NCBI GenBank assembly: GCA_900128395.1 | Contig: LT649259.1 | Location: 1-55,946, forward strand | Origin: Stramenopiles sp. TOSAG23-2 | Taxonomy: Eukaryota | DNA: 55,946 nucleotides | Direction of reading: 5' to 3' | Shown: one piece after another, positions 5,685 through 29,081 of the stretch | How the letters are laid out: the number at the start of each line of letters is the position of its first letter | How positions within the stretch are numbered: the first letter of the stretch is position 1 | Notes under the pieces: generated by a model | The model's input: the letters and a program-made list of their open reading frames with translations, nothing else | Told to the model about the DNA's origin: nothing | Database searches by the model: none | Made by a program: the position numbers and the translations under genes

Positions 5685-5939
5685 ATGTCGTCGACGTCCA
5701 GTAGTGACGAGGAGTTTGATGATAACGAAGATATGCCAGGTCTTGTTAGTGATAGTGAAAGCAATGATGATTCTGATTCAACGAAGCGATCTTCCTCTGA
5801 GGGATCATCGTCTGAAGGGGAAGAGACGGATGGTGAAGAGTCTGATAGCGATGAGTCTTCATCAGAGGAAGAGGAGGAAACACCTAAATTAAAAACTAAA
5901 ACTGGGGGAATTAAAAAAGGGTTTTTAAATTCACAACAA

Positions 5940-5974
<35 letters not shown>

Positions 5975-8900: not shown

Positions 8901-11900
8901 TATGTACGTCATGGAGAAAACGACATACAGAATGGAAATGATAATGCATCAGAGTTGACAGAACAATATTTCTTCATCGAGCCAGATACTGCAAAATTTA
9001 ATCCCATCCGACATTATTTTATCGATAGTTCTGCTGCCACAGCATTGTTATATTTTGAAGAAGACGACGATTTTGAATTAGAATCAGGTGGTAATGAACA
9101 AGAAACTCGAATTATTACTCGTGGCTTAAATCCCGATCCGAGGCAAAAAAAAGAGAAGGAATCATCCATATTATTGCTGGGAAGATCCGGTACAGGAAAA
9201 ACAACATGTTTGATATACCGTTTGTTTAATGAATTCAAATTATTTTGGAAACGAAGGAAACAAAATGAAGAAAAGCGAGTTCTACTTCGTGAAGAAAGAC
9301 AAGCTGAAATCAATCAACGTAATGCAGAAAAAGAAACTGGTGATGATGAAGAAATCGGCGATGAAAATTTGGAAACAGAGGAAGATGGCGATGATGAAAT
9401 TGATATCGCCCAAGATGAATTCGATGAGTTTGATGGTGAAGATTTTGGTGCAATTTTCATCACAAAGTCGCAAGTTCTTCGATCTGAATGCTTAAAACAA
9501 TTTAAGAAACTTCGTGCTGGACTCACCATAAGCGAAAAGGTATTAATAGAAGAGGAGGAAGATCGTGTTATGCCAGAAGATGCCCATCCATTAAGTCTAC
9601 ATGATTTACCTGCATCGTTTTATCGTGAAGATCCTGAACGAGCAAATTTGGGAACGCAAATTCAAATGGGAACGTTTCCAATGTTTTTGACGGCTGATGC
9701 GTATTGGAGAATGTTAGACAACACTTTACCCGGGGAACGAGTAAAGTACTTTCAGCATCGCCCAGTACCGTCAGATAAACCGAGGACTGTCGGGGATATA
9801 GTAAATATGAACCAAGATAACCCGCTTGATGGTTTAGAAGAATTACCAGTGGATGAAATGAATCTTTCATCTGATTCTGATTATACCGATAGTGAAGACG
9901 ATGAAATAAAAGAAATTGACAATATCGCTTTTAGTAACATTAATTACATTGAAGTAACGTTTGAAATTTTTGTCAAAGAATTTTGGGGTAAAATTAAAAA
10001 CGTCAAAAATGACAAATACAATGCTGCAGTGGTTTGGGGTGAAATTAGAAGTCATATAAAAGGTTCAATTCACTCGTATACTCATGAAACTCCATTAACA
10101 AGGCAAGAGTATACACTTACTGAAGTAGGAAAGAAGCAAAGTAATTTGTCTGAAGCAGAAAGAAATGAGATTTACGACATGTATCAAAAATATGAACGTA
10201 TGCGAAAGCAGGCTGTGCAAGGCGAAAAAGGTATCTCATGGTATTACGACATTATGGATGCTCTCCAAGAAATCATACCTCGCTTAAAGAAATTTAAAGC
10301 ATCTTCAGCAGATGAACAAAATAAAGTTGTCCCAGTTTTTACTTCATATGTAGATGAAATTCAAGACTTCACGCAAGTTGAAACGGCAATAATCATAAAT
10401 TTTTGCAAAGATCCAAACCGACTGGTACTTGCAGGCGATACAGCTCAAAATATTTGTAGTGGAATTAGCTTTCGTTTTGAAGATATTAAATCAATGTTTT
10501 ACAAATTAAATGAAAGCTTAATAAAAGAAAACGAAGTACGGAATAATATCCTTGAAGATGCTGAAGTATTGGAGATCGCAGTTGGAAAGAAATGGAAAAC
10601 AAAAACAAAAAGCATCAATGTTCCAAGTGAAAAAGATGGTACTTTTTGCCATTTAAACTTGAACTTTCGTTCTCATGATGGAGTATTATTACTTGCTGCG
10701 AGTGTAGTTGAGTTGCTATATGAATTTTTCCCCGTTTCAATTGATAAGCTTGATCCAGACAATGGAATAAAAGATGGTCCAAAACCTGTTTTATTTAAAT
10801 CTGGCAATGGACATGACTTACTTATGATGTTACTTGGATCTAGAGATACGAGTACAAAAGTGCCATTTGGTGCCTCGCAAGCGATTCTCGTGCGGTCCAA
10901 AGATGCAATAAAAGCTCTTCCAAAAGAACTCAGTGTACATCCCTTGATCTTGACGATCAATGAGTCAAAAGGTTTAGAATTTGATGGAATTCTTTTGTAT
11001 AATTTCTTTAAAAATTCAAAAGCAACAGAAAAAACATGGCGTTGTATTGCAAAGTATATGGATAGGCATAAACATAAAAGCATGCAAACGGTGGATGGAG
11101 AAATGTCACATGAAGAATTTCAAACATATTGTGATGAAATGAAAAGAAAATTACGAAGTAGAGCAAAAGATTTTGAGGAAACATCAGATCGTATTTTGGA
11201 AAGCGAATTAAAATTATTGTACACTGCAATAACACGTGCAAAATCAAATGTATGGATTTTTGATGACGATGACAATAAAAGCATTCCAATGTTTGAATAT
11301 TTTGAACGTAGAAAGTTAGTCAAAATAGTGCAATCAATTGAAGATTCGCAAAATGCGAATGCTAATATCGCCCAATCTGCTACCAATGGTGCTTATGAAT
11401 GGATTAAGCAAGCTCGGGTGTTTGAGAAAAGTGCTAGTATTAAGAAAGAATACGAAGAAAGAAAACGATTTTACAAGCTTGCTAAAGGGTGTTATGATAA
11501 AGCAGTTGAAGAAAATAACATTGCAATGAAAACGAATGCTGATTTAATCACATCAACTAAGAAAGAAGAGGATGACTATGAAGATGTAATAAATGAAGGT
11601 ATGATAAATTTACACTTTGATAAAACTTCATCTATTAAAAATAGACAAAATGAAAACAAAGAGCATTTGCAAAAACAAAACAAATATTGTAAGGAACAAA
11701 TTGTTAAATGCGAGTTTGAATTATTATTAGCTAATTCACAATATATCAAATCTACACAACCGAAGAAATACGTTGAAAGTTTATTGGAAGCTGCAAAAGC
11801 AGCAGCTGTTGCATTTAAAATGACTAGACGCAAAATTCCATATGGAAAATATTTATTGTCCATTTATTATAATTTAGCGAAACATGTTGAAACGAAAAAT

Positions 11901-12287
11901 GGTAGTATAAACGCGAAGAAATATTATGAAATTGCTGGAAATTTATCTTACACATTTGGAGAGCTTCAAAATGCTAAAAGTTTCTTTGAAAAAGCGGGTG
12001 ATAAGGAATCTGTGGCTAAAATCGAAACGTATTTGAAAGGTAATACAAATGATAGTAGTAGCGATTATACTGATAGTAGCGATGATGAAAAAATATCAGA
12101 TACTGCACAGATTGAAAATACTCTAAACTTAGTGAAAATGATGGACGAGGAACGAAACAAAACATTGAAAAATCGACGTAAGAAACGATTTAATAAAAGA
12201 AAAATGAAGAAAGGTAAAAAAAAGAAAAGTCAATCGACGAAAAAAAATGCAAAGCGACCAGCATTGAATGTCGAAGATGATTATTAA
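5685..12287 (+). CDS. TRANK1-like superfamily-1 (UvrD-like) helicase with an upstream RelE/ParE-like module; acidic and low-complexity termini
   Basis: Helicase motifs: Walker A GRSGTGKTT, Walker B YVDEIQD, AGDTAQNI, LNFRSH, SKGLEFD, LYTAITRAK. The segment LFEAK..ERILWE..EVIRIWDIVLDH resembles animal TRANK1. Confidence 0.85.
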
Positions 12288-16335: not shown

Positions 16336-17707
16336 GCCTGTATTTAATAAATCTCTTGGACTACCCAAAAAACCTGATGAAGGGTGGTGGGCACTTACAC
16401 ATCACAACTCAAATAATCAAAAAGGGAAACATCCTGGGGATAATAATCCAATAGTACAAACGTTATTATGGAGTGTATGGTTAATTTTACTCATTTCAAC
16501 TGCATTAATTGATGATTTTTTTCAATTTGTTGGTGCTGTTTGTTTCTTAGTCGTACTGTGTATATTTATTCCAGATGATGGAAGTACAGTATTACCATAT
16601 TACATACATTTAATATTGCCTATTATTGCATTTAAATCTGTATTGCAAGGTGGCCATTATTCGTTTTCAATGTTTTATTTTATATTTGGTATTGTTCCAT
16701 TAGCTGATTATATACTTGGTGTTGACGTAGCAAATCAATCAAAAGAGGAGCAAAAGATATTAAATAAATATTATGGATTTAAATTGTTTACATTATTAAT
16801 TCCTATTTGTGTCGCTGGTGTTATTGCTGCAGGTGCATATTTTTTGACACAAACAGAGGAAGGTAAAAATTTAACTTCAACTGAATTTATTGGTTTTAGT
16901 TTATCAGTTGGATTTTATACAGGAGCAATTGGGATAGTTGTTGGCCACGAACTTTGCCATAAAGCAAAATGGTATGAACGTTTATTAGGAAGGTTTTTAA
17001 TGTGCGCTGCTTGTTATGGGCATTTCTATGTAGAACATACACTAGGCCATCATAAAGACGTTGCGACTGATAAGGATCCAGCAACAGCACGGTATGGGGA
17101 GGACTTCTATTCCTTCCTTCCAAGGGTTGTAATAGGTGAATTTACATCTGCATGTAAAATCGAACTTGATCGGTTAAAGAGAAAGAAATTACCATGGTGG
17201 CAAAATGAAATCCCAATGTACTTTAGCGTTTCAGGTTTAATGGCGCTAGGCCTTTACATAGCGTTTGGTGCGATAGCAGTGAAATATTTTTTACTGCAAG
17301 CTGCTTGGGCGATTATATTATTTGAATCCGTAAATTATTTAGAACATTATGGTTTGGAAAGACGTCAAGACTCAAATGGAAAGCATGAAACGGTGAAGCC
17401 ACAACATAGTTGGGATTCCCCGGCAAGGCTTACGAATATGGTAACCATTAAATTACAAAGACATGCTGATCATCATGCACATGCTGGAAAAAGATTTCAA
17501 ACACTTCAAGCATATGAAGCTTCCCCGCAGTTACCAAGCGGATATGCTACAATGATCGTTCTTGCTTTCTTCCCACCGATTTGGAGATACGTGATGCATC
17601 CTCGATTAATGCGTTTTCGAAAAACGCAAACAGGTCAAGTTTGGAGACATGGACCACAGCCAGAATATGATGAGAACAATGGTGAGGGTGATAAGAAGAA
17701 GAAATAA
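16283..17707 (+). CDS. alkB: Alkane 1-monooxygenase (AlkB-type membrane di-iron hydroxylase), 474 aa
   Basis: His boxes GHELCHK, EHTLGHH, NYLEHYGL and LQRHADHHA, plus DPATARYGE and PQLPSGY, and multiple TM helices. The start is taken at the in-frame ATG of the second duplicate copy. Confidence 0.92.
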   Translation: MPLLESTASSKTACVSTAPVFNKSLGLPKKPDEGWWALTHHNSNNQKGKHPGDNNPIVQTLLWSVWLILLISTALIDDFFQFVGAVCFLVVLCIFIPDDGSTVLPYYIHLILPIIAFKSVLQGGHYSFSMFYFIFGIVPLADYILGVDVANQSKEEQKILNKYYGFKLFTLLIPICVAGVIAAGAYFLTQTEEGKNLTSTEFIGFSLSVGFYTGAIGIVVGHELCHKAKWYERLLGRFLMCAACYGHFYVEHTLGHHKDVATDKDPATARYGEDFYSFLPRVVIGEFTSACKIELDRLKRKKLPWWQNEIPMYFSVSGLMALGLYIAFGAIAVKYFLLQAAWAIILFESVNYLEHYGLERRQDSNGKHETVKPQHSWDSPARLTNMVTIKLQRHADHHAHAGKRFQTLQAYEASPQLPSGYATMIVLAFFPPIWRYVMHPRLMRFRKTQTGQVWRHGPQPEYDENNGEGDKKKK

Positions 17708-17718
17708 CAAGTACATTT

Positions 17719-17941
17719 TTGTGTACGACTTCGTAATAATATTTTTAATTATAATTATTATTTGTTTTTATATTTATAAAGCTAAATCCTCTACGTGTAT
17801 TTTCGTTTTTTGCGCCTATAATAATCGTTTTGCTTTAAAATGTGTTGTGTACGACTTCGTAATAATATTTTTAATTATAATTATTATTTGTTTTTATATC
17901 ATATTTTAAAGCTAAATCCTCTACGTCTATTTTCGTTTTTT
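17719..17941. repeat. Imperfect direct duplication of ~95 bp between convergent genes
   Basis: TTGTGTACGACTTCGTAATAATATTTTTAATTATAATTATTATTTG...CTCTACGT occurs at about 17719 and 17845. Confidence 0.85.
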
Positions 17942-17967
17942 TATATATATATAAATAAAAACTTCTC

Positions 17968-20529
17968 TTAACTCATTGCCGCTTCTAATACACCACAGGC
18001 TATCATTACATCTTGAATTGCTACACCAGTTGAATCAAACAATGTTATACTATCATCATTTTTACCACTACGAATATTATCTTCACTGCTCCCTTGCAAT
18101 AATAATTCTCCCAATTCTACTACAGGGTGATTATCATCATTATCAGAGCAACATGATAATTCGCCAAATGCTAAGCATTGTTTTTTTGAATCTGCTACTT
18201 TTACATCTGCTTGCTTTACTAAATCTTCAGATAATTCTCGTTTGCCAATGCCATCGCTGCCGATTGCTGTTATATGGGTACCAGGGCGTACAGAGTGTAA
18301 AATTGGTTTCTTTGCCGATGTTGTTGTTACAATTAAATTACATTCCCTAGTCAAATCATTCATTTCTGTGGCAACCGCTACATCAAATCCTTCATTTATC
18401 ATTTCACTTTTAAATATATTCGCTTTTTCTATATTTCTTCCCCAAACAACTACTGGTGCAATTATACCAACCACTTTTAACCATCTCAATTGAAAACGAG
18501 CTTGCATGCCAGTACCTACTATGCCAATTTTTTCTAATCCTTGCTTTGCATTTATTTTAGCTAATTTTCGTGCTGCAATTGCCCCAGCAATTGCTGTTCT
18601 TACATCTGTTAAATACCCATTATCAAACAGAATGCTGTCTGTATTTCCAGACTTTTGATTAAATACTAGCATTAATCCAGTTGATGTACTTTTATTTAAT
18701 GCTACATTTCCAGGGAAACCACCCGCACATTTCACAACAAACTTATCTCCATTTTTTATAAATCCACTTTTGACACATACATCACCATATGAACCAAGAT
18801 CCAAATGCTGTACCGGGGCTACTTCAACAAGCCCTTGAGAAAAGGATATAAATCCATTTACTTGCGCTTCAATTAATGTAAGAAATTTTTCTTTAACTAC
18901 TCTTTTAATTGTATCTAATCCTAATGTAAATGGAGATTTGGTTACAGCATTACCATTATTGTTTGTGATTGTAGTAATTTCATTTTTAGTAACCACCTCG
19001 GCATTTGCATTTTTTACTTCTACTGCTTTTTTTACAATCTTGGACCATTCTAGAATTTTTTCTTTTGATTTTTTTTTATTTGCACGTAACCAATTAAATT
19101 TATCATTCGGTAGACTTCTCAAATGTTGAACAGTTTTGTTTACACGTGGTGTCAAACCTGCTTGAATCAACGTTTCATCAAATTTTGCTGGATGTGCTGT
19201 TAGTACACAAACAGTATTATTATGGTCTAGCTTATTTTTTATTTTATTATTATTTATATTGTCTTTATTATCATTATTTAGCTTAAAGTATGCAAAAACG
19301 CCAATGGCAGAGTGTGGGCAAAGATGATATGAAGACGCTTCATCTACCTTTTTCATTACATCCATTGTGGATTTATCTGTAACATTTAAACTTGTAAATG
19401 TTTCTTGAATTTTTAGAACTAACAATTCATCTAATTGGCATCCACGACGTTTGGTAGGTCCATTATTACTATTATTTTGCTCCAATTGTTTCATATAAAA
19501 GCTTACTTCATCTGAATTTTGATTTAACATGAAGTAAAGCATCCGCTCCAAATTGTATGCAAATTGAATATCCATAGCGGGCGAAACTGTTTTTTTATTT
19601 GCACCCATAAACATATCGCCAGTTGATAGTGTACGATGTACAATATCATTTGCATTTGTAGCGCATATAATTTTATCGATTGGGAGATTCATTAATTTTG
19701 CAAGATAGCCACCGCATGCATTCCCAAATGCACCAGAAGGTACAATAAATGTTACTTTTTTCTCACACAAAGGTTGTAATTGTATGTAGCTCCAAAAATA
19801 ATAACACGATTGAGCCATAATCCTGGCAAAATTAATACTATTAATTGAACATACAGAGTATTTTTCCATGAATTGTGAATCCATAAATAACATTTTCAAC
19901 GCCTCGGCTTGCTCATCCGTATTACCTTCTGTACGAAAAACTTCTACATTATCCGAGTCAACAGTAGTTAATTGTAATTCCTGTACAACACTAACACGTT
20001 CATTTGGATATAGACAAAAAATATTAATATTCTTTAAATCTTTTACCGCTGCAATGGCTGCAGGGCCCGTATCTCCAGAAGTTTCTACTATTATATTTGC
20101 ACGTTTTTTTCTTTTTCCTAAATAATAATTTAAAAGTTGCGCAACAACTTGTTGGCCAATATCTTTAAATGCTAATGTTGGACCATTTCCTGTTTCAAGA
20201 AAATACGGGTAGTTATCTTTCACTTTCAACAAAGGCAAGGATGGAGTTTTCCCATCATTAAAAGTTTTGAATGCAGCTTCACACATATCTAAACAATCAG
20301 CAGCTGGTATAGATGTATACATTTCCATTACAAATGCAGTCACTTCAGCAAGTGTTGCTTTTTTTGCTGCCATTCGCTTTAAATCAACGGATTTGATTTT
20401 CGGTATGCATTCTGGGACATATAACCCACCATCTGTCGCATATGCTGAGAATAATATCTTTTCAAATGGTTGATTTCTTTCTATAGATGCACCACGTGTT
20501 GAACAATATCGTATTTTAGATGTTGCCAT
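17968..20529 (-). CDS. Fusion: threonine synthase-family (fold-type II PLP) domain + ornithine cyclodeaminase/mu-crystallin domain, 853 aa
   Basis: N-terminal half: YCSTRG, DGGLYVP, GPTLAFKD (PLP Lys), ETSGDTG, NSINFAR, VPSGAFGN, SPAMDI, CPHSA, TAHPAKF. C-terminal half: YLTDVRTAIAG, GIVGTGMQA, HITAIGSD, FDSTGVAIQD. The first ATG is at 20529; the ORF-track start at 20553 is GTG. Confidence 0.9.
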   Translation of the reverse strand: MATSKIRYCSTRGASIERNQPFEKILFSAYATDGGLYVPECIPKIKSVDLKRMAAKKATLAEVTAFVMEMYTSIPAADCLDMCEAAFKTFNDGKTPSLPLLKVKDNYPYFLETGNGPTLAFKDIGQQVVAQLLNYYLGKRKKRANIIVETSGDTGPAAIAAVKDLKNINIFCLYPNERVSVVQELQLTTVDSDNVEVFRTEGNTDEQAEALKMLFMDSQFMEKYSVCSINSINFARIMAQSCYYFWSYIQLQPLCEKKVTFIVPSGAFGNACGGYLAKLMNLPIDKIICATNANDIVHRTLSTGDMFMGANKKTVSPAMDIQFAYNLERMLYFMLNQNSDEVSFYMKQLEQNNSNNGPTKRRGCQLDELLVLKIQETFTSLNVTDKSTMDVMKKVDEASSYHLCPHSAIGVFAYFKLNNDNKDNINNNKIKNKLDHNNTVCVLTAHPAKFDETLIQAGLTPRVNKTVQHLRSLPNDKFNWLRANKKKSKEKILEWSKIVKKAVEVKNANAEVVTKNEITTITNNNGNAVTKSPFTLGLDTIKRVVKEKFLTLIEAQVNGFISFSQGLVEVAPVQHLDLGSYGDVCVKSGFIKNGDKFVVKCAGGFPGNVALNKSTSTGLMLVFNQKSGNTDSILFDNGYLTDVRTAIAGAIAARKLAKINAKQGLEKIGIVGTGMQARFQLRWLKVVGIIAPVVVWGRNIEKANIFKSEMINEGFDVAVATEMNDLTRECNLIVTTTSAKKPILHSVRPGTHITAIGSDGIGKRELSEDLVKQADVKVADSKKQCLAFGELSCCSDNDDNHPVVELGELLLQGSSEDNIRSGKNDDSITLFDSTGVAIQDVMIACGVLEAAMS

Positions 20530-20975
20530 GGTTTGGTATGAATTATAATACACTTTACTGTAATATGTCGGTAATATTATCTTCCTTGAATTTAGCAGAA
20601 TATATTTAATATATAAATAATTCGTGATGGTTAAAATCTAAGTTACAATAATTTTAGTATATATATTTATATTTTAATATTATATTGAAATATATTTAAA
20701 CCACATCATACAGACAAGCTACATCTGTATATATAATATAATTATTATTACTTATAATCATAATACTTGTTGTATTAAAATGTGGTGATTGATGTGATTG
20801 TGCGATTTAAAGGGTAAATAAATTTTTATTATACTAATAAGTATAAATTATAATACCCATATTTTAGTATCAAATCTCCGATGCACTTTGAAATGTAAAT
20901 GCTAATCATTATAATAAATAATTTCAATAATACTTTTTCAAATAATAATTTCTAATTTGGTTTTAGTTTCTTTTT

Positions 20976-23900
20976 TTACCGCATTTTCGCTCTGCTATCA
21001 TATCGCCTAAATGTTTGTTGCATATCGGCGGATGAAGCATTCCATACAGAGGAATCACTAAAGGACATCACTCGTCTAGCTTTTAAATTTCTACGACGGA
21101 ATTTCTCTGCATTTAACTCTAATTTCATAGCATCCATCGATAACATTGCATTGGCACATGTCTCTACTATTAATGCTGCATTTCTACTTCGAACATTTTG
21201 GAACGAGCTATGAGTACTTTCAATTGCTAATAAACCTCCCTCGTTGATAATAATTTCAGCTTGCCCTGCACTAGCCATAGCAATGTTTTCTAATGTACTA
21301 ACACAACGTACGCATATTTGTGGGCGATTGGGCCATGCACATAAATTATTAATGACAAAAGTAATACCACCTTGCACAACTGTTAAACGTAAAGCCTCTT
21401 CGCTAAATGATAAAAGACCTATAATTGCTATAACCCCGGTAAGGATTGTATATTCTGTTGGATAAAGTTGCGTACAAATCTTCATCAATGGAGGTATTGC
21501 ATATCTTGCAACATCAAACATACAGTTGTCATCGGCTGCTAGTTTGTTCAAAGCATTCACTACAATGCCTATCAATTCACGATCATAGCCTTCTCCTTCA
21601 CTCAAGGAAATTAAATTTGAAACCGATGCTATACCACCAAGTGCAACCATCCGCCTACGCGTTTCTTCATCAGCAGATAAATGATAAAATGCAGACACTG
21701 TGTTTATAAGAACATCTATGCGACTTTTTTGCAATGTTGAATTATCAATAACACCTACAACTACTTGGAATCCACCATCTTCCAGCAAAATATTTCTACA
21801 TGTACTAGATGTACATATGGCATGGACCATGGACATAGAATGCTGTATCACAACGTCATCATAATCATGAATTTGGATAATCTTTAAGATCGTTTCAACT
21901 ACATCTTTCACAACTAAACGCTCCAATGTAGCGGCATAAATTGTTGCATTATACAATGCTTCCAGTCCTGATGCTAAAACCTTTGAAGGAACGGATTGGG
22001 AAATAGTTTCCAAGATTATATCTGGAGCGCGATGCGAATACAATTGCTCATGGTAATCATTATTATCTTCAATATCGTCAAATTCCGCGAGGAAGAAATT
22101 CCCAAGTACATCCATACTTAGTTTCAATATTTCATGATGTTTTGGATGGGATTCAATGAAGTGCACTACAACGGAAGTTCCGCCGCTTGAAACCACACTA
22201 ATCATCAATTCGTCTGAATCGCATAACACTCCAAATAAACGCGTTCCATGGGCGGCAACTTGCTCTTCCTCCCGATGGCGATGTGTTAGATATAGGATCT
22301 TTTGATCAAGTATATCCCAAACAGTTTGTTGTATAGGTACATTCTGAGCACATAGATTGGACAATAAATGCAGGCATAAATATTCCACCTCCACTGATGT
22401 TTCCATGTAGTGATGCATTACATATTCTAACCCACTAACAAGCTTCAACGTATCTACTAAATGATTCGAGATATCTGGTGCCCGGTACGATAGATTAATC
22501 AAGCATTTTAAGCACGGAATGATTAAATCTACATATTCTAGATATTTCATCATCAATTGCACAGCAACAACGCCAGCACCTTGCGATCCATACATTCGTT
22601 GATTGTGTCGTACTTTTGTAGCATTTTCCATCTCCGTCATTTTTTTTGTATATTGTTTAATATTTCCAGCATCTACTTCGCGCAATTCCTTGACTCGCTG
22701 CGCTACTGTTTCCTCGTCTTCCACTTTAACAATTGCTTTTCCAGCCGGCCGTTTATATCTTTTTTCTGCTTTTTTTAATGCCGCTTTTAACGCGCTGATA
22801 TCCATGATATCTTCATCATTGTCGAGTTCATCTGTTTCCATTCCTTGTAACAATGACAATGCATCTTTGGAAAATTTATCATTTTCATCATCTTTCTGCG
22901 AACCAGCAAGTGCAGCAGAGATGCGAGAACCGACACGCATATTAATCAATTCCTCCGAAACAAGTGCAGATGAATGTACATGTTCTGTAACTTTGTTCAA
23001 AACTTCTAAACATGTCAATGCATGTTCTGAATTATTTTCTAATGTACTCATAACATTTGCAACAAAACCATTCAACTCGCTTTGTTTTCCAGAGTTAGCC
23101 ATACCAGTAACAATAGATTGCATTGCTTGCGAACCTCCTTCAGTGGAACAGATTTCAGCCATATTAGCACTGATGACTTCAACCGCTTTCGATTGAGCAC
23201 CTGGCATGTAATCGTGGACAATATCACTCAAAGCAGAATCGGCCATCAAATATACTGCACTTTGAGGACTCATTACTTCCGACAATATTTTATCTGCATG
23301 AATGGTAACATTTTCTTCCTCTGGAAATTTATTGACTAGCTGAACCGCAGCACTGGATATTTCTTGCTCAATTAAAGACTCTCTCAAGCCTTCCACCTCT
23401 TTGGAGGCTACAACTAGCGTGGCTAGTAATTCAGCCGCACCTGCTGCTGCGGGAACAAATGCAGGATCGGATGGACATTCCATTGCAAATTTAATGACAC
23501 TTCTAGTACCACCACGTTGCGATACTGCATTTGCACCCTCATTAGTCTCTGCTAAAATTTTTAAAACTTTTGTAGCAGCTAAAATCACATCAGGGTCGTT
23601 CTTATGCAATTGCAAGACACGGATGACTAGTCGAATGCCTTTTTGGTTTAAAATACTTTCGCGTAAATGCTCAACAGTAGCCAACGTAGCTAGTAGCTCC
23701 AATAGTTCGGTAACGTCGTATTTTGCATTTGCTTGAAGGCCTCGTAATACACATTCAATAGTGCCATTGTCTACAATCTCATCAATCATATTTTGAGCAA
23801 CTGATGGATCAGTTTCTCCAGATCTCATGGTTGATTGGATAAGCCCTCTCAGTGCGCGAGCGGCAGCATTAACAATTTCTTCTTTTTCCGACGTTTGTAA

Positions 23901-26900
23901 AGTTGTTAACGGAGCTACATCGAGACTACATGCCAAGGACAATGCCTGTATCATAACACCCAACGCACCTTTCTTTAAAACTGCATGGGTTGCACTTTTT
24001 GATATTGCACATGTAGACATAACACGCAAATGCGCTAAGAATGTCTTTGCATCGGATGGTACCCGACTAACCGACGGCCCTAGGCGATCTATTTCAACCA
24101 GTGCATGGTCAAGAACTTCTAGATCGATATGATGTTTTTCTATATCCAACGTCTCATCTAGCAAATGTTTCTCCATGACGTCAACTATTTCTGCAATCGT
24201 TATTGAACAGGATTGGTGAAGACTTTCTTTATTATGGCATGTTGGTGGCAAGTTAATAATACTTTTGCAAGTTTTAATCGCCGCTTCAAGCGCCCCCATC
24301 CGTACGATTTGAACGCCGGTAGCGTCGGAGCTTGCATAGACTAATAAGGTTCTCAAATCTACCATCATTTGCGCTTGGAGCTTCGCATCTTTGGCTATTT
24401 TTTTTTTATTGTTAGGATCTGTAAGTTCATTTAAACGGTTTACAGCATCTGCAGCATACCCAATAGGCAAATTCGTAGCAGCTTTCATGTCACATTTGTC
24501 AATCATTGCTTCACATGCTTCAACAATTTCTTTCCTAGTGGATGCAGGTAAATCACTATCATCCAACCCAGCCGTCCTACCCATGGCCGCTAAAATACTA
24601 CTGATACCTCCTAATCTAGTAACTAAATCTTGTGTTTCACCAGACAAGGCAATACCCTCCATAGCTTTTAAGGAGTTTAATAATGCTTCCCCGGAATCAT
24701 TACTGGAAGCTTCGTGGGATGCATAACCTGCATTAGCATTTGCGCGTGCATGTGTATCCCAAGATTTATCATTGCCAAATATAGTATACATTTGCAATCC
24801 ATCAATTAAACCAGCTCGAGTTATACCATCAAAGCCATCCAAATCCATGTCTTGCCACAATGAATCGACTAAGCCTTTCGCAATTTCTTCGTTCAAACCA
24901 GAATCAATAAACATGTACAACAATTCCTCCTTAGGAATTTGATACGTATCTGACTCTATTCCTAAAGAATCTACAAATGGAATTATAAGGTGCGGCTCCG
25001 GTACAAATTCTTGTTGCATCTTTGCTCTGCTAACTTTTTCAATCAAATTTAAGAATGCCTGGGCAGATGATACATTCATTCCAACATCATCTTTGTCTAG
25101 ATCTTGATCCCTACTACCTAGGCGTTCTGCAGCAATTAAATCTGCTATTTCAACCAAAAATGCATCGCTGACATTTATCCCGGCATCCTTACACATTTCA
25201 CGCAAAAGAGATTCATTGACTACACGATCCGTAGAAACGCCGTTCACATCTACCAATCCATATTTTTGAATCCATTGATCCCACTTGCCATTGTATTCTT
25301 CATCGATATGATCAAGTAAATGCGCTAATAAAACACCGGTATGCGCATCATTTTGATTTTGTATGTACCTTCCTTCACCAGATGCGACTAATGCAACATT
25401 TACCATTTCGCTTAACCATTCCTTTGAAATGGCTACATCAAAGCTCAAGCCGTAAATATCCGTCAGTGTGTTCATAAATTTCAATGATTCAGTAGAGTCA
25501 AATCCAACCGACGTCATTTTACCAATAATATCAGGCGTTGTCATTGCGAAACAACTAGCCCCTTTAAAAACTCGTGCGGCAAACGAATCGCCATCCTCGA
25601 CTTGATTATGCAAGAAACGTTTTGTCGATTTAAATTGGTTTACGCGTTTTAATTGCTGTAAAAATTCTTTCATATTTGAATGGGGGTCTTTTTCAGAAAT
25701 CAAATGCAATAAAGACAATAAATCATTTTTTGAAGTCTGTAAACCAAGTACATTAGCAATGAGTGATAGATCCGTCATTGTCAACGAATTATCTTCAATA
25801 TCATCTTCATCTTCAATCAACTTTAAATGTCGTAAAAATCTCATGTCATCCCCACTGTAATATTGTTCAATGCCATCGACCATACGTGCAAGTAATCGTA
25901 AAGATGCAATTTCACCTAGATTTGCATCTGTCATATGTGCACCGGGCATACCCCCAGCAAGATGTCGTAAACGTTCTATACCACCTTCTAACGACTCTGG
26001 TGTAAGATCTGCCTTTTCCATAGTGTTGCCCAATTCAATTTCCTCAGCGCTGTCATCCCAATGCATTGTATCAGACATCACCGAACTGAGTTGCAAGGCT
26101 TCCATGATGCCTAAATCAGCTTGTACAAAATGTTTTTGCAAATTTTGCTGGCTTGTATCGCCAACTTCGATGGAATTCAACTCACATTTTTCCACGAAAT
26201 GTGGTGTATGACCTATGGAAAATTCAAGAGTTTCATGAACATTGTTGACTGACATTTTTTTATTTAATGCGTCATATAATCCCTCAACAGTCGAATTTTC
26301 CTGTTTAGCTAATGTTTGGATTGCATGCCGTAAACGTCCAATATCGGATCTGCTTGCATCATTAACCCCACATGCTTTTAAAACTTTTTTTAACTTTCGT
26401 ATATTTAATGGACCACGTATAATTTTACCATTTACATCAGCCATTTTTACGGATTGAAACATGGCTAGAAGACTGCCATTATATTTCATATCAATTCCAC
26501 GTATAATTTTTGAAAGCATATCAGATGCTTCAATAATATCTAATTGTTCTTGTGGTAACTCTGGACGTGATAAAATAATACAGGTGTCTAAAAATTCTGC
26601 TATTTCCGCTGGACTAAATTTACGTTTAATCTCTACGGCACTACTATCATCATCACTATCCCCATCTTGGTCGTCATCATTTGCAAAACTAAATTCATCG
26701 GGTAAATCGTTATTTGCTTTAGGCTTTTTTGCACTTTTCTTCAAAATAACATCAGAGCTATGATTTGAAAGAGCTTTCAACATATCTCCGATTTTTTGAA
26801 TTTCATTCGTATCTAAAAACCCATCCATAAAAAATTTATCAAGTATATCTTCTATTGTTAATTTACCACTAGCATATTTGCCTAAATCCATATGTGAAAC

Positions 26901-29081
26901 AAAATCGACATAGCCTTTTTTATGGATCTTATCCAATGCTTCGCGTCCGTTCCGGCATAACATTATGTTATTTAATAAGACTAATAGGTTATTAGTCGTG
27001 ATTCCATGCTCCACATGATCTATATCATCATAACAATGTCGCATCTCATGTTTAGAACTGTTGACACCGCAGCGTCTCATTAATGATTCAAAATTATGAT
27101 ATGCAATTTTGTTAGTTCTTGAAGAAGCAGTGTCTTCCGCATCGCCACCACCGCCATCATCATCATCATCGCGTTTCTCAACAACTGGCTTGTAATTGGA
27201 ATCAATTAAATTCATTGCTATCGCCCATTTCTGCAAACTTCCACCAAAACCACTTTCAATCTTGCTTGCTGCACAAGCCATTAAAAGTATTGAATTTGGG
27301 CGCAAATTTCTAGAACGGCCTACTTCTTTTTCTGTTGTCAAGGAACGTCCAACAAGTATGCCTTCTTTAAATTTAGTACTACTTATTAAACCACTGGTAC
27401 CATTGCCACCAGTAGCAGATGGATCATTATTGAAAGTCCAATTTTGTACTTTTCCTAAAGCATTGATAAACATATCAGCTTTTGACACACCACAGCGTTT
27501 TAAATCTTTTTTCAGCTCATCTACCGTTTTTTCTTTTTGAATAGGTGTTTTTTTCCAAACTTCTTTGACAAATAAATCGGGATCACCAACATTATCTAAC
27601 ATCGTTTCAATGCTTTGAGCTGCGATTAGACGTGTCAATGCTTCATAAAATGCCTGTGGCGTTGCACGTCCATCCGCTTTCATCGATGTTTCGGCAACAT
27701 ATTTATACATAATATTTTCCTCCTCCGCTGTTAAATTAGGATTCAATTCATTTAATGTACGTCTAGACAATAAAACATCCGTGCGTGGTTTATTATTTTC
27801 TAAGTTCATAAGGTTTGAATCCATCATCCATTGCTCCACGGTTGCTTTTGATACGATATCGGCATTGCCATCGCTACCATAAACAGGATTTGCTTTCAAA
27901 CTTTCTAATAATTTTTTCAACACATCTGATGCCATGACACGTTCAGTGTATATACGTCGTTCTTCCCCACGATGGTTAATCAATTTTCCTCCACTGTTAC
28001 TATTTCCATTGCATATTTCAGCAACGCGAAATGCATGTAAAAGGTCTACTTTACTCAACATAATACTTGGATCATCGTGATTATTATTACTTTTCCACTT
28101 CATTATGTCTGTTAAATTAGATATCAATACATCTACATTATCCGGGTTGCACCCAAAATCATCAACAAATACACTTTTTAAGATATCGGTAGATATCATT
28201 GTTTCAAATCCAACGCCACTTGGGTTTGATGTTGCATTTTGCACTTGGTGTTTTTCCTCAAATTGATTCCATACTTCATCCACTAACATACTTGAGTGGT
28301 TGATAAAATTACCTGTCACTTCCACCGTATCAAGAACTTTTTGGAATTTATCTATAACAGTCATAATTTGCCCAATAGTCAATGGTGCACCGTCAACAAC
28401 AACACCAATTTCATCATCTATCAATGTTGTTTGAATATATGTATATAAATTGGAAATGTCTTTGTTATCACACGCGATCAATCCTCCATTTGCACATAAT
28501 TCGCTTAACTGTTGCAAGTCATAACTTTTCTCAATCACTTGATTTGTAGTTGGATCTATTAACTCCAACGCAACTAACCATTCTCTTAAACTGCCACGAT
28601 GATCTTCCTTTATATGACGAGCTATCGATGCCATCATTATTTCTGGTGTTTGCTTACCACGTGTATGATTTGGATTCTTAGTATTGGCGCGCTCTGACGT
28701 AGCTATTGCCTGTTTCGATTTTTCATCACCAACCCAATCCCAATCATTTACTTGCTTCAATAAGCGTTTAACAACAAGCTCTGCACTATCTGGTGCTAAA
28801 ATTTTCAATGCACGAACGCCATTAACAGTACTTGAATCTTTAGAAGCTTGGTGATTTTGTAAATATTTCACAATAGTGGACGATAAATAGGTTACAAAAT
28901 ATTCACCACACGTATTTTTAAATTCATTTGCCCATTCTTCCGGTGGCTTACTCGTCGTTGTCAACAAACTTTTTAATAAATATTCTATTAAATTTGGATT
29001 TTTTTTAAATAAATATTTTTTAATTTGTTCCACAATGGAATCGGTTTTGGAGGATGGGCGTGGCCTCAATTGCACCGGCAT
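20976..29081 (-). CDS. Giant (2701 aa) protein with a C-terminal armadillo-like helical repeat region and six N-terminal ~200-aa repeats
   Basis: Uninterrupted 8.1-kb ORF with ARM-like motifs (GIRLVIRVLQLH, GGTSVVVHFIESH, GGIASVSNL, GGITFVINNL, EGGLLAI). Confidence 0.8.
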   Translation of the reverse strand: MPVQLRPRPSSKTDSIVEQIKKYLFKKNPNLIEYLLKSLLTTTSKPPEEWANEFKNTCGEYFVTYLSSTIVKYLQNHQASKDSSTVNGVRALKILAPDSAELVVKRLLKQVNDWDWVGDEKSKQAIATSERANTKNPNHTRGKQTPEIMMASIARHIKEDHRGSLREWLVALELIDPTTNQVIEKSYDLQQLSELCANGGLIACDNKDISNLYTYIQTTLIDDEIGVVVDGAPLTIGQIMTVIDKFQKVLDTVEVTGNFINHSSMLVDEVWNQFEEKHQVQNATSNPSGVGFETMISTDILKSVFVDDFGCNPDNVDVLISNLTDIMKWKSNNNHDDPSIMLSKVDLLHAFRVAEICNGNSNSGGKLINHRGEERRIYTERVMASDVLKKLLESLKANPVYGSDGNADIVSKATVEQWMMDSNLMNLENNKPRTDVLLSRRTLNELNPNLTAEEENIMYKYVAETSMKADGRATPQAFYEALTRLIAAQSIETMLDNVGDPDLFVKEVWKKTPIQKEKTVDELKKDLKRCGVSKADMFINALGKVQNWTFNNDPSATGGNGTSGLISSTKFKEGILVGRSLTTEKEVGRSRNLRPNSILLMACAASKIESGFGGSLQKWAIAMNLIDSNYKPVVEKRDDDDDGGGGDAEDTASSRTNKIAYHNFESLMRRCGVNSSKHEMRHCYDDIDHVEHGITTNNLLVLLNNIMLCRNGREALDKIHKKGYVDFVSHMDLGKYASGKLTIEDILDKFFMDGFLDTNEIQKIGDMLKALSNHSSDVILKKSAKKPKANNDLPDEFSFANDDDQDGDSDDDSSAVEIKRKFSPAEIAEFLDTCIILSRPELPQEQLDIIEASDMLSKIIRGIDMKYNGSLLAMFQSVKMADVNGKIIRGPLNIRKLKKVLKACGVNDASRSDIGRLRHAIQTLAKQENSTVEGLYDALNKKMSVNNVHETLEFSIGHTPHFVEKCELNSIEVGDTSQQNLQKHFVQADLGIMEALQLSSVMSDTMHWDDSAEEIELGNTMEKADLTPESLEGGIERLRHLAGGMPGAHMTDANLGEIASLRLLARMVDGIEQYYSGDDMRFLRHLKLIEDEDDIEDNSLTMTDLSLIANVLGLQTSKNDLLSLLHLISEKDPHSNMKEFLQQLKRVNQFKSTKRFLHNQVEDGDSFAARVFKGASCFAMTTPDIIGKMTSVGFDSTESLKFMNTLTDIYGLSFDVAISKEWLSEMVNVALVASGEGRYIQNQNDAHTGVLLAHLLDHIDEEYNGKWDQWIQKYGLVDVNGVSTDRVVNESLLREMCKDAGINVSDAFLVEIADLIAAERLGSRDQDLDKDDVGMNVSSAQAFLNLIEKVSRAKMQQEFVPEPHLIIPFVDSLGIESDTYQIPKEELLYMFIDSGLNEEIAKGLVDSLWQDMDLDGFDGITRAGLIDGLQMYTIFGNDKSWDTHARANANAGYASHEASSNDSGEALLNSLKAMEGIALSGETQDLVTRLGGISSILAAMGRTAGLDDSDLPASTRKEIVEACEAMIDKCDMKAATNLPIGYAADAVNRLNELTDPNNKKKIAKDAKLQAQMMVDLRTLLVYASSDATGVQIVRMGALEAAIKTCKSIINLPPTCHNKESLHQSCSITIAEIVDVMEKHLLDETLDIEKHHIDLEVLDHALVEIDRLGPSVSRVPSDAKTFLAHLRVMSTCAISKSATHAVLKKGALGVMIQALSLACSLDVAPLTTLQTSEKEEIVNAAARALRGLIQSTMRSGETDPSVAQNMIDEIVDNGTIECVLRGLQANAKYDVTELLELLATLATVEHLRESILNQKGIRLVIRVLQLHKNDPDVILAATKVLKILAETNEGANAVSQRGGTRSVIKFAMECPSDPAFVPAAAGAAELLATLVVASKEVEGLRESLIEQEISSAAVQLVNKFPEEENVTIHADKILSEVMSPQSAVYLMADSALSDIVHDYMPGAQSKAVEVISANMAEICSTEGGSQAMQSIVTGMANSGKQSELNGFVANVMSTLENNSEHALTCLEVLNKVTEHVHSSALVSEELINMRVGSRISAALAGSQKDDENDKFSKDALSLLQGMETDELDNDEDIMDISALKAALKKAEKRYKRPAGKAIVKVEDEETVAQRVKELREVDAGNIKQYTKKMTEMENATKVRHNQRMYGSQGAGVVAVQLMMKYLEYVDLIIPCLKCLINLSYRAPDISNHLVDTLKLVSGLEYVMHHYMETSVEVEYLCLHLLSNLCAQNVPIQQTVWDILDQKILYLTHRHREEEQVAAHGTRLFGVLCDSDELMISVVSSGGTSVVVHFIESHPKHHEILKLSMDVLGNFFLAEFDDIEDNNDYHEQLYSHRAPDIILETISQSVPSKVLASGLEALYNATIYAATLERLVVKDVVETILKIIQIHDYDDVVIQHSMSMVHAICTSSTCRNILLEDGGFQVVVGVIDNSTLQKSRIDVLINTVSAFYHLSADEETRRRMVALGGIASVSNLISLSEGEGYDRELIGIVVNALNKLAADDNCMFDVARYAIPPLMKICTQLYPTEYTILTGVIAIIGLLSFSEEALRLTVVQGGITFVINNLCAWPNRPQICVRCVSTLENIAMASAGQAEIIINEGGLLAIESTHSSFQNVRSRNAALIVETCANAMLSMDAMKLELNAEKFRRRNLKARRVMSFSDSSVWNASSADMQQTFRRYDSRAKMR

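Follow-up and report, generated by a model that had tools for sequence, protein, structure and literature searches.

A threonine-synthase-like enzyme fused to an ornithine cyclodeaminase-family domain in marine protists: a candidate two-step enzyme for a phosphorylated amino acid

Contig LT649259.1 of Stramenopiles sp. TOSAG23-2 (assembly GCA_900128395.1), analyzed here over its full 55,946 nucleotides (the window), carries a reverse-strand gene for an 853-residue protein that joins a threonine-synthase-like (ThrC-like) domain dependent on pyridoxal phosphate (PLP) to a domain of the ornithine cyclodeaminase/mu-crystallin (OCD) family. Comparisons of sequence suggest that this fusion works like known PLP-plus-OCD pairs yet belongs to none of them, because its OCD half falls short of the curated cut-offs for EutC, BhcD, SbnB, alanine dehydrogenase (AlaDH), and ornithine cyclodeaminase. 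The PLP half does not qualify as a genuine threonine synthase, because it lies outside their clade and lacks residues that they share. The pairing, conserved but unstudied, probably converts a phosphorylated amino acid in two successive steps. In the reading we favor, with a probability of about 0.4, a phospho-hydroxy amino acid would lose its phosphate in the PLP domain, and the resulting imine would be reduced by the OCD domain with NAD(P)H; the exact substrate is much less certain. New here is the ThrC-type first half; the PLP-plus-OCD pairing and the catalogued Emiliania huxleyi models with this architecture were known already.

As an initial annotation of the window had claimed, the protein is one uninterrupted open reading frame (ORF) with two complete domains, both matched in Pfam and by solved structures (Table 1). 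The open frame extends over 17968..20553 (-) and would give 861 residues if read from a GTG; the ATG at 20529 gives 853 residues and is also the start of the identical database protein P0002. The N-terminal half contains the three-part fold of a class-II threonine synthase, Thr_synth_N followed by PALP (residues 92-322, 46.9 bits) and THR4_C (residues 408-504, 23.4 bits, under the cut-off of 27). The OCD_Mu_crystall profile is covered from 11 to 310 of its 314 positions, and 147.9 bits against a gathering score of 24 place the second half in the superfamily. Yeast threonine synthase (1kl7) aligns with residues 7-504 and archaeal alanine dehydrogenase (1omo) with residues 565-853. Motif coordinates were checked by translation, which confirmed the annotated PLP lysine in AFKD (K122), the GTGMQA Rossmann motif (residues 672-677), and the Asn/Thr linker (residues 505-543).

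An AlphaFold2 model built on a 51-row alignment is confident in both halves, with a mean predicted local distance difference test (pLDDT) score of 88.3 and values below 50 only at residues 1-3, 518-532, and 605-615. A long helix (residues 488-518) runs into the disordered stretch 518-532. The predicted template modeling score (pTM) of 0.64 leaves the mutual orientation of the halves undefined, and docking them as separate chains, without alignments, gave a score of 0.00 that weighs on neither side. Foldseek matched the first half to class-II threonine synthases, with Brucella threonine synthase 4f4f at a template modeling (TM) score of 0.94 (normalized to the target). The second half matched AlaDH, the iminosuccinate reductase BhcD, and pyrroline-2-carboxylate reductase, at TM scores of 0.85-0.86 to 1omo, 1vll, and 6rqa and at 26-29% identity for AlaDH and BhcD; the structures of SbnB and CmnK match it at 16-17% identity only. 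The fusion protein looks soluble, its gene has no introns, and direct expression should be possible.

The fusion is real at the DNA level and no assembly artifact. The identical-protein cluster has 25 members; among the 15 listed, nine are 853 and one is 852 residues long, on separate contigs from several archives. An A9 homopolymer lies near the junction (about 19070-19078), and protein homology stays in frame on both sides of it and through the linker in five other fusion sequences. A second species has the fusion: metagenome contig L093 (GC content 0.33) encodes an 849-residue ORF of the same Pfam architecture, 80-81% identical in both halves. Relative to L093, the nonsynonymous to synonymous substitution ratio (dN/dS, Nei-Gojobori) is 0.13 in the ThrC-like part (residues 1-504), 0.095 in the OCD part (residues 544-853), and 0.70 in the linker, ratios that are approximate with dS near 1. 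Both halves are under purifying selection, and the linker insertions and deletions preserve the reading frame. The junction, which the initial annotation had marked for confirmation, is thus backed by independent contigs, orthologues, and an in-frame linker. In four metatranscriptome runs, RNA contigs extend over 19083-20656 and 18229-18532 and leave 18533-19082 unbridged, so that a single transcript across both halves is an inference.

Further fusions have the same domain order, namely P0003 (808 residues) and P0004 (811 residues) at 62-63% identity and, in haptophytes, E. huxleyi P0005/P0148 and the contig-derived P0036/P0151. Five clusters with both halves are listed (P0002, P0003, P0004, E. 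huxleyi P0005, which includes P0148, and P0036). In an all-against-all HMMER search of 1.84 billion representatives, P0003 and P0036 are the only ones of the best 150 matches to cover both halves; among these matches the architecture is rare and limited to two clusters when counted at 50% identity. The E. huxleyi models XP_005774208 and XP_005786905 (UniProt A0A0D3JE44 and A0A0D3KFE1) share the domain order of the window's protein, hereafter the query, at 47-48% identity in the alignment, and sit in public databases annotated merely as 'hypothetical protein', 'Threonine synthase', or 'Ornithine cyclodeaminase'. P0005/P0148 lack about 75 residues of the linker and OCD N-terminus that are found in P0036/P0151 (alignment columns about 650-730), probably a mis-called intron. 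A literature search, with most subscription journals and supplements outside its reach, found no publication on this architecture or on the E. huxleyi accessions. The earlier statement that no described ThrC-OCD fusion was known therefore stands as far as papers go, but not for the databases, where the architecture exists as unstudied E. huxleyi models.

The position of the ThrC-like half was taken from a quick IQ-TREE phylogeny of 85 rows, unrooted within class II and built from rows other than THNSL2. It contains three class-II groups: a canonical clade of 21 rows with the fungal THR4-type and most bacterial sequences, a bacterial clade named AMGF for its FKDxAMGF motif, and a 48-row clade with the query (Shimodaira-Hasegawa-like approximate likelihood ratio test, SH-aLRT, 100). 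Inside the latter, the query belongs to a 35-row subclade, ETGx (SH-aLRT 100), and so stands outside the clade of experimentally known threonine synthases. Besides four fusion rows (query, P0003, P0004, and E. huxleyi P0005), ETGx comprises 31 unfused proteins, most of them 475-514 residues long and several from EukProt and MMETSP. One unfused gene lies on a 70-kb contig with eukaryotic neighbors (SHIPPO repeats, CRAL/TRIO, an ABCG transporter, and SRP54). The motif ETGNGPT, which the initial annotation had taken as a hint of altered specificity, is not particular to the fusion and turns out to be a signature of this eukaryotic ThrC-like clade, 31 of whose 35 rows are unfused. On this tree the fusions sit at two separate places in ETGx, each with unfused sisters, which implies more than one fusion or fission event.

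A column-by-column comparison of the 21 canonical with the 35 ETGx rows shows how the two groups differ. Where canonical enzymes have Leu, Phe, and His, ETGx rows carry Thr at 113 (29/35), Gly (25/35) or Ser (10/35) at 114, and a variable residue at 115. Altogether 35 canonical-conserved positions differ, 27 of them with a new consensus in at least 60% of the clade. The replacements include L113T, F114G/S, H115 (variable, Asn in the query), A125G, G148V, A149E, F204T/S, D206E, C207Q, Q208A, N267A, D270N, S324A, S325Y, F327L, and others, and the full set of invariants of the E. coli/yeast-type clade (ELFH, GA-TSGDTG, FDDCQ, SGNFG[DN], and SS-N-F-E-R) is not reproduced. By this comparison about 25 residues invariant in true threonine synthases are replaced in ETGx, and the 'threonine synthase' annotations of the whole clade are probably wrong. 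The ETGx half keeps K122, T150, G152, D153, T154, G155, N230, S231, R236, G266, F268, and G269; K122, the TSGDTG-loop residues, N230/S231/R236, G266, and G269 are at least 95% conserved across class-II clades. We take NSINFAR to be the likely substrate-phosphate site, by analogy with class-I threonine synthase, and equate N154/S155/R160/N188 of the Thermus class-I enzyme with N-S-x4-R and N270 of the query. If this analogy holds, the retention of N-S-x4-R and N270 suggests that the substrate is still a phosphate ester.

The NCBI thrC equivalog TIGR00260 accepts the ThrC-like half (211.8 bits against a cut-off of 167.1), but a bacterial OCD-adjacent paralogue passes as well (210.4 bits), and the model thus cannot tell paralogues apart. 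The same non-canonical ThrC-like clade contains two other kinds of fusion: P0042 (739 residues) ends in a DMSP_lyase-family cupin (33.6 bits, cut-off 27), and P0037 (609 residues) begins with a desulfoferrodoxin domain.

The OCD half stays below every curated equivalog cut-off, for characterized families and the uncharacterized PRK06823 alike. Its scores, each followed by the cut-off, are 288.3/438 for PRK06823 'ornithine cyclodeaminase family protein', 240.2/408 for PRK08291 'cyclodeaminase', 197.8/471.65 for EutC, 144.3/409.15 for archaeal AlaDH, 137.5/500 for BhcD, 107.3/322 for PRK06141, 98.7/350 for ornithine cyclodeaminase PRK07589, and 62.7/326.9 for SbnB. The closest solved relatives (1omo/1vll AlaDH, 6rqa BhcD, and 6t3e pyrroline-2-carboxylate reductase) all make or reduce a C=N bond at C-alpha. 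The active-site loop GSDGIGKRE is common to AlaDH, BhcD, and lysine cyclodeaminase. K587, K600, R644, D759, K763, and E765 do not vary among the fusions and 25 bacterial relatives, and we assume for them the roles assigned in OCD and AlaDH structures. At the position of Gly697, next to a conserved Trp/Tyr where Rossmann strand beta-2 ends, 1omo AlaDH, NADH-bound 6t3e, and 5yu0 lysine cyclodeaminase have Asp and 6rqa BhcD has Asn; the solved members compared here carry NAD or NADH. The eukaryotic fusions keep W-G/S-R and the bacterial family the W-G-R form. Because W-G-R replaces Asp/Asn, general Rossmann-fold rules suggest that the OCD half prefers NADP(H) and works reductively.

Trees of each half had been proposed in the initial annotation; that of the ThrC-like half sets it outside the canonical clade, and a 90-row tree of the OCD half makes the eukaryotic OCD clade (SH-aLRT 95) sister to the bacterial PRK06823 family. 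This clade groups the eukaryotic OCD halves with five unfused proteins (P0160, P0355, P0362, P0371, and P0397) and with P0161, a 230-residue protein whose retained columns are identical to the OCD half of P0004 and which is probably a fragment of a fusion. Unfused P0160 (56% identity) is sister to the query group and mirrors unfused P0006 and P0011 in the ThrC tree, a pattern consistent with ThrC-like and OCD genes traveling together even when unfused.

Bacterial gene neighborhoods provide a second line of evidence. When one genome per prokaryotic species was scanned, 571 of 600 pattern matches were confirmed as relatives of the OCD half. Neighborhoods of three genes on each side were taken from the best 80 of the 571 loci (40-48% identity), their ORFs were called and clustered, and families were assigned from the cluster representatives. 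A PLP enzyme lies within three genes of the OCD gene at 66 of the 80 loci. The pairing of fold-type II PLP enzymes with OCD proteins, invoked in the initial annotation, is the right frame. A dehydratase stands alone at 21 loci, an aminotransferase-fold enzyme alone at 22, both at 17, and a ThrC-like enzyme at six; 14 have none, and some of these are short contigs. The dehydratase, a 338-residue fold-type II PLP enzyme present at 38 loci, is encoded directly upstream on the same strand in 37 of them. Its representative is PRK06815 'threonine/serine dehydratase' (426.8 bits against 371) and is EutB- and BhcB-like below cut-off. The 429-residue class I/II aminotransferase-fold protein occurs at 39 loci, with a representative that resembles PRK07324, GntC, and VioD below cut-off. 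At 60 of the 80 loci the PRK06815 dehydratase, the GntC/VioD-like enzyme, or both accompany a PRK06823 OCD gene, an uncharacterized module seen in Acidobacteriota, Bacteroidota, Chloroflexota, Marinimicrobia, Woeseiaceae, and others (for example, L001:6953-8915 and L004:2601-4831).

Five of the six ThrC-like loci (L032, L051, L064, L065, and L075) come from Desulfobacterota-type metagenome-assembled genomes and L071 from a gammaproteobacterial one. The OCD gene precedes the ThrC-like gene in all six and adjoins it in five, with transporter genes between them in L065. Four of the six have a YheO-like PAS/HTH regulator directly upstream. Two have an APH-fold homoserine-kinase-like gene downstream, which reaches 162-167 bits of the 271 required for PRK05231, and two contain an inserted polar amino-acid ABC transporter; a class-III aminotransferase follows in one locus and a HAD hydrolase in another. 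The OCD-linked copy is an extra paralogue, because each of the five genomes searched (L065's lay outside the search) has one or more additional thrC-family genes that exceed the curated cut-off. All six OCD-adjacent copies belong to the AMGF clade. The clusters look like accessory uptake and utilization clusters rather than threonine biosynthesis, and breakdown of a hydroxylated amino acid, an option raised in the initial annotation, fits the bacterial neighborhoods better than an SbnA/SbnB-like route does.

A second case of the OCD-adjacent AMGF paralogue was not found in a sample of 201 genomes from the phylum of genome G001: 47 of them match at E<=1e-60, and all matches outside G001 are 35-44% identical, the same range as the second, canonical-type gene of G001 itself (L082, 40%). 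No PF02423 domain occurs among the best 120 AMGF relatives listed. An apparent bacterial OCD-ThrC fusion in L071 was rejected: its 844-residue open frame is a high-GC artifact, and the genes are separate and in different frames. Pseudomonadota do encode PALP+OCD fusions, in Atlas clusters of 64 and 65 members (640 and 757 residues, one auto-named SbnA), which appear to be a fused form of an SbnA/SbnB-type pair.

We propose the two-step reading because OCD relatives almost always accompany a PLP enzyme able to make an imine or enamine from an amino, hydroxy, or phospho-hydroxy substrate. The fusion itself links a fold-type II PLP eliminating enzyme to an OCD-family protein, and in bacteria such a link involves a dehydratase at 38 and a ThrC-like enzyme at six of the 80 loci. 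In step 1, the ThrC-like domain would bind a phosphorylated hydroxy amino acid, most likely O-phospho-L-homoserine or O-phospho-L-threonine, and eliminate its phosphate as threonine synthase and the THNSL2 phospho-lyase do, leaving the threonine-synthase reaction unfinished and releasing an enamine or 2-imino acid. In step 2, the tethered OCD domain would use NAD(P)H, probably NADPH, to reduce the labile C=N bond, which would yield a saturated L-amino acid; from phosphohomoserine or phosphothreonine this would be L-2-aminobutanoate. Nitrogen that a plain phospho-lyase would lose as ammonia would thereby be kept. The existence of a fusion would be explained, because tethering may shield the hydrolysis-prone intermediate. 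The proposal would also account for the retained putative phosphate-binding residues, for the loss of residues invariant in enzymes that complete threonine synthesis, and for both the AlaDH/BhcD-like second half and the kinase in bacterial clusters.

A wider and more tentative version, possible but somewhat doubtful, takes the ETGx branch as a new reaction specificity. Together with an OCD partner, fused here and in haptophytes and separate elsewhere, it would form an undescribed nitrogen-conserving route of marine protists that starts with O-phosphohomoserine, or with a different phospho-hydroxy amino acid, and ends in a non-proteinogenic amino acid or the precursor of an osmolyte. The bacterial operons of regulator, OCD, ThrC-like, and kinase genes would then be a convergent catabolic version.

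Several observations weigh against the two-step elimination and reduction. The ThrC-like half exceeds the thrC equivalog cut-off, so threonine could still be its product. Most members of its clade are unfused (31 of 35 rows), and no OCD gene was found within 10 kb of the unfused ETGx genes examined; among 80 metagenome loci of ETGx genes, OCD matches occur only in the fusions L093 and L102. The ThrC-like/OCD partnership is therefore not obligatory in cis. The operon evidence is one of analogy and not orthology, because the bacterial copies group with AMGF and the eukaryotic ones with ETGx. The Asp of the GSDG loop is the catalytic residue of true cyclodeaminases too, which would leave room for cyclodeaminase chemistry. 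We know of no physiological role of 2-aminobutanoate in these organisms. Finally, none of the RNA contigs from the four metatranscriptome runs bridges the interval named above, and no joints were seen; this gap includes low-complexity sequence, and reads seem cut at the stretches 19056-19082 and 19230-19261.

By analogy, the reaction we favor would resemble those of BhcB/BhcD or EutB/EutC more than that of SbnA/SbnB. The beta-hydroxyaspartate cycle is the one well-studied case of this logic: its dehydratase, BhcB, makes iminosuccinate, a labile compound that the OCD-family iminosuccinate reductase BhcD turns into L-aspartate (PMC8166194). In the fusion, too, a fold-type II PLP eliminating enzyme would pass on a labile 2-imino acid for reduction by an OCD-family enzyme with NAD(P)H. 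Of the solved structures, BhcD (6rqa) also ranks among the three closest to the OCD half. However, BhcB and BhcD are separate proteins, BhcB is a dehydratase, which takes off water where a ThrC-type enzyme would take off phosphate, the OCD half reaches 137.5 bits of the 500 demanded for BhcD, and BhcD has Asn where the fusion has Gly-Arg.

EutB/EutC, which function in hydroxyectoine/ectoine utilization, likewise combine a threonine-dehydratase-like PLP enzyme with an OCD-family protein, and EutC is the third-best OCD model (197.8 bits). They differ in that the OCD score is under the cut-off of 471.65 and the PLP partner belongs to another subfamily. In SbnA/SbnB, the L-2,3-diaminopropionate pair, a replacement reaction is followed by NAD+-dependent oxidative cleavage. 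This pair and the related VioB/VioK and CmnB/CmnK share with the fusion a fold-type II PLP enzyme acting on a phospho-amino acid and an OCD-family partner, with fused forms in bacteria, whereas their PLP half is CysK-like and not ThrC-like and the similarity to SbnB is weak. THNSL2 and the class-II threonine synthases (E. coli ThrC and yeast Thr4) have the same three-domain fold, PLP lysine, and TSGDTG loop, and one of the top Atlas feature matches is to a chordate 'threonine synthase-like 2' cluster (0.96). THNSL2 degrades phosphohomoserine or phosphothreonine to 2-oxobutanoate. Unlike the class-II threonine synthases, the query lies in a separate clade, has some 25 invariant residues replaced, and has gained a C-terminal OCD domain. 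The bacterial clusters with YheO-like, PRK06823 OCD, and AMGF ThrC-like genes are alike in that the closest OCD family adjoins a non-canonical class-II ThrC-like gene (6/80), and different in that the genes are separate, in the opposite order, and of another ThrC-like clade.

We consider it unlikely that the fusion is a diamino-acid synthase of the SbnA/SbnB kind. Its ThrC-like domain would swap the phosphate of phosphohomoserine, phosphoserine, or phosphothreonine for the amino group of glutamate or another amino acid, and its OCD domain would oxidize and hydrolyze the resulting secondary amine with NAD(P)+ to 2,4- or 2,3-diaminobutyrate and a 2-oxo acid. Bacterial fold-type II PLP and OCD fusions auto-named SbnA (Atlas match score 0.76) are a lead in this direction; Thr/Gly/x in place of the bulky Leu/Phe/His before the PLP lysine could admit a larger nucleophile, and ThrC relatives with non-water nucleophiles exist (cysteate synthase and MetM). 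But the OCD half, at 62.7 bits against the SbnB cut-off of 326.9, is far nearer to PRK06823, EutC, AlaDH, and BhcD, and the structures of SbnB and CmnK are more distant from it than those of AlaDH and BhcD (16-17% versus 26-29% identity). The PLP half is ThrC-type, no SbnA/CysK family appears among 16 NCBIfam matches, and W-G-R suggests NADPH rather than the NAD+ that SbnB uses as oxidant. The diaminobutyrate route put forward in the initial annotation is accordingly the less supported analogy, its SbnB score being low and Gly-Arg standing instead of Asp/Asn.

We also doubt that the chain merely holds two independent activities for the sake of co-expression, an ordinary threonine synthase and an unrelated OCD-family enzyme that converts ornithine to proline or acts as an alanine-type dehydrogenase. 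This would agree with the thrC equivalog score, with the retained PLP, carboxylate, and putative phosphate-binding residues, with the unfused occurrence of both domain kinds in related eukaryotes (P0006-P0035 and P0160), and with the lack of an N-terminal extension pointing to special targeting. Set against it are the replacement of about 25 residues invariant in genuine class-II enzymes, a clade apart from those of E. coli and yeast, and fusions in two separately placed eukaryotic lineages of the tree. Bacterial operons, too, link the two families, with the ThrC-like gene as an additional paralogue, and the OCD half is under all characterized cut-offs, for example those of ornithine cyclodeaminase (98.7 versus 350) and AlaDH (144.3 versus 409.15).

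Rather improbable is a cyclic imino-acid synthase, in which the OCD domain would act as a cyclodeaminase or cyclic-imine reductase on the PLP product to yield a proline, pipecolate, or azetidine type of compound, such as an osmolyte precursor. The second-best family model is indeed the 'cyclodeaminase' PRK08291 (240 bits), the GSDG(x)GK(x)E loop with Asp759 is common to lysine cyclodeaminase, and many bacterial relatives adjoin GntC/VioD-like PLP enzymes, whose characterized namesakes make cyclic amino acids. Cyclodeaminases, however, keep NAD+ bound and end beta-2 with Asp (5yu0) instead of the Gly-Arg found in the fusion, all family scores of the OCD half are below cut-off, and we know of no plausible diamino or omega-amino product of a ThrC-type reaction. 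Least credible by a wide measure is that a sequencing error or chimeric contig joined two neighbor genes: the A9 homopolymer and the interval without RNA contigs (18533-19082) would permit it, and the in-frame homology beyond the homopolymer and through the linker in five other fusions, the 10 of 15 listed cluster members that are full length on separate contigs, the same order in orthologues at 81%, 63%, and 62% identity and in haptophytes, and the in-frame linker changes relative to L093 argue against it. A cysteate-synthase-like sulfonate route was dropped, as OCD-family enzymes act on C=N bonds and nothing supports the use of sulfite.

Fold-type II PLP and OCD pairs are a recurring two-step device, used in diaminopropionate synthesis, hydroxyectoine utilization, and the beta-hydroxyaspartate cycle. 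If elimination followed by reduction is correct, the fusion adds a version with a threonine-synthase-type phosphate eliminator as its first half, present in eukaryotes that include the bloom-forming E. huxleyi. As Rosetta-stone evidence, it offers a partner and a testable reaction for a whole clade of 'threonine synthase' annotations, and it points to a widespread uncharacterized bacterial family, PRK06823 with PRK06815 and an aminotransferase-fold enzyme.

Table 1. Positions of the fusion gene, its domains and motifs in the window, and of the bacterial OCD/ThrC-like clusters in their own loci
Feature	Residues	Position	Strand	Basis or remark
Whole gene	853 codons + stop	17968..20529	(-)	ATG at 20529, stop 17968-17970; identical to database protein P0002
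Thr_synth_N domain	7-87	20269..20511	(-)	Pfam PF14821, 50.4 bits, profile 1-79/79
PLP catalytic part of ThrC-like half (PALP + THR4_C)	92-504	19018..20256	(-)	Pfam, 1kl7 alignment, Foldseek 4f4f
ETGNGPTLAFKD, variant pre-lysine motif and PLP lysine K122		20161..20196	(-)	Translation
TSGDTG loop	150-155	20065..20082	(-)	T150, G152, D153, T154, G155 at least 95% conserved in all class-II clades
NSINFAR	230-236	19822..19842	(-)	N230, S231, R236 conserved in all class-II clades
SGAFGN, PLP-phosphate loop	265-270	19720..19737	(-)	A267, N270; canonical N (21/21) and D (86%)
Linker, Asn/Thr-rich	505-543	18901..19017	(-)	Residues 518-532 predicted disordered (pLDDT <50)
OCD/mu-crystallin domain	544-851	17977..18900	(-)	Pfam PF02423, 147.9 bits
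GTGMQA dinucleotide-binding motif	672-677	18499..18516	(-)	G672, G674, Q676, A677 invariant in 8 fusion sequences
W696-G697-R698, end of Rossmann strand beta-2	696-698	18436..18444	(-)	Printed alignments with solved members
GSDGIGKRE	757-765	18235..18261	(-)	D759, K763, E765 invariant
Bacterial ThrC-like cluster		L075:6339-12111		
Bacterial ThrC-like cluster		L064:7279-11312		
Bacterial ThrC-like cluster		L032:4-7594		
Bacterial ThrC-like cluster		L065:7279-14341		
Bacterial ThrC-like cluster		L051:7282-10352		
Bacterial ThrC-like cluster		L071:1951-4352		

The window is AT-rich (GC 0.29-0.41), with widely spaced, unspliced ORFs for Myb, ARMC5/ZER1-like repeats, OGFOD2-like, fatty-acid desaturase, FYVE, AIR9, RRM, JmjC, ATG27, and cyclophilin proteins, and we assign the contig to the nuclear genome of a marine protist that is uncultured and poor in introns. 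A giant-virus origin was rejected, as viral contigs contain no relative and the neighbors are ordinary eukaryotic genes. The stretch was found in 20 listed sequencing runs from 12 studies, the labeled ones being marine, seawater, or aquatic metagenomes; six of the 20 are RNA libraries, four of these poly-A or oligo-dT selected.

A search of 17600-21000 against Rfam gave no match. Two pieces of about 32-35 nucleotides that flank the gene (17810-17844 and 20625-20656) recur in the RNA contigs, the first in all four runs and the second in three of the four (not X17). Both are single-copy in the window and without an Rfam match, their RNA depth reaches about 260-320, far above that of the gene, and some run into unrelated sequence or an A-run.

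Giant unspliced ORFs flank the region. The ORF at 20976-29081 (-) encodes 2701 residues with ARMC5-like and ZER1-like repeats, and the ORF at 5685-12287 (+) encodes 2200 residues with a weak UvrD_C_2 match only. Between 12190 and 13832 all six frames are open for about 1.6 kb, with five ORFs of 352-528 residues in five frames and the 3' end of the 2200-residue ORF in the sixth. With a local GC of 0.41 and an AT skew of 0.33, this interval resembles a purine-rich tract of low complexity or repeats in which that ORF has its 3' end.

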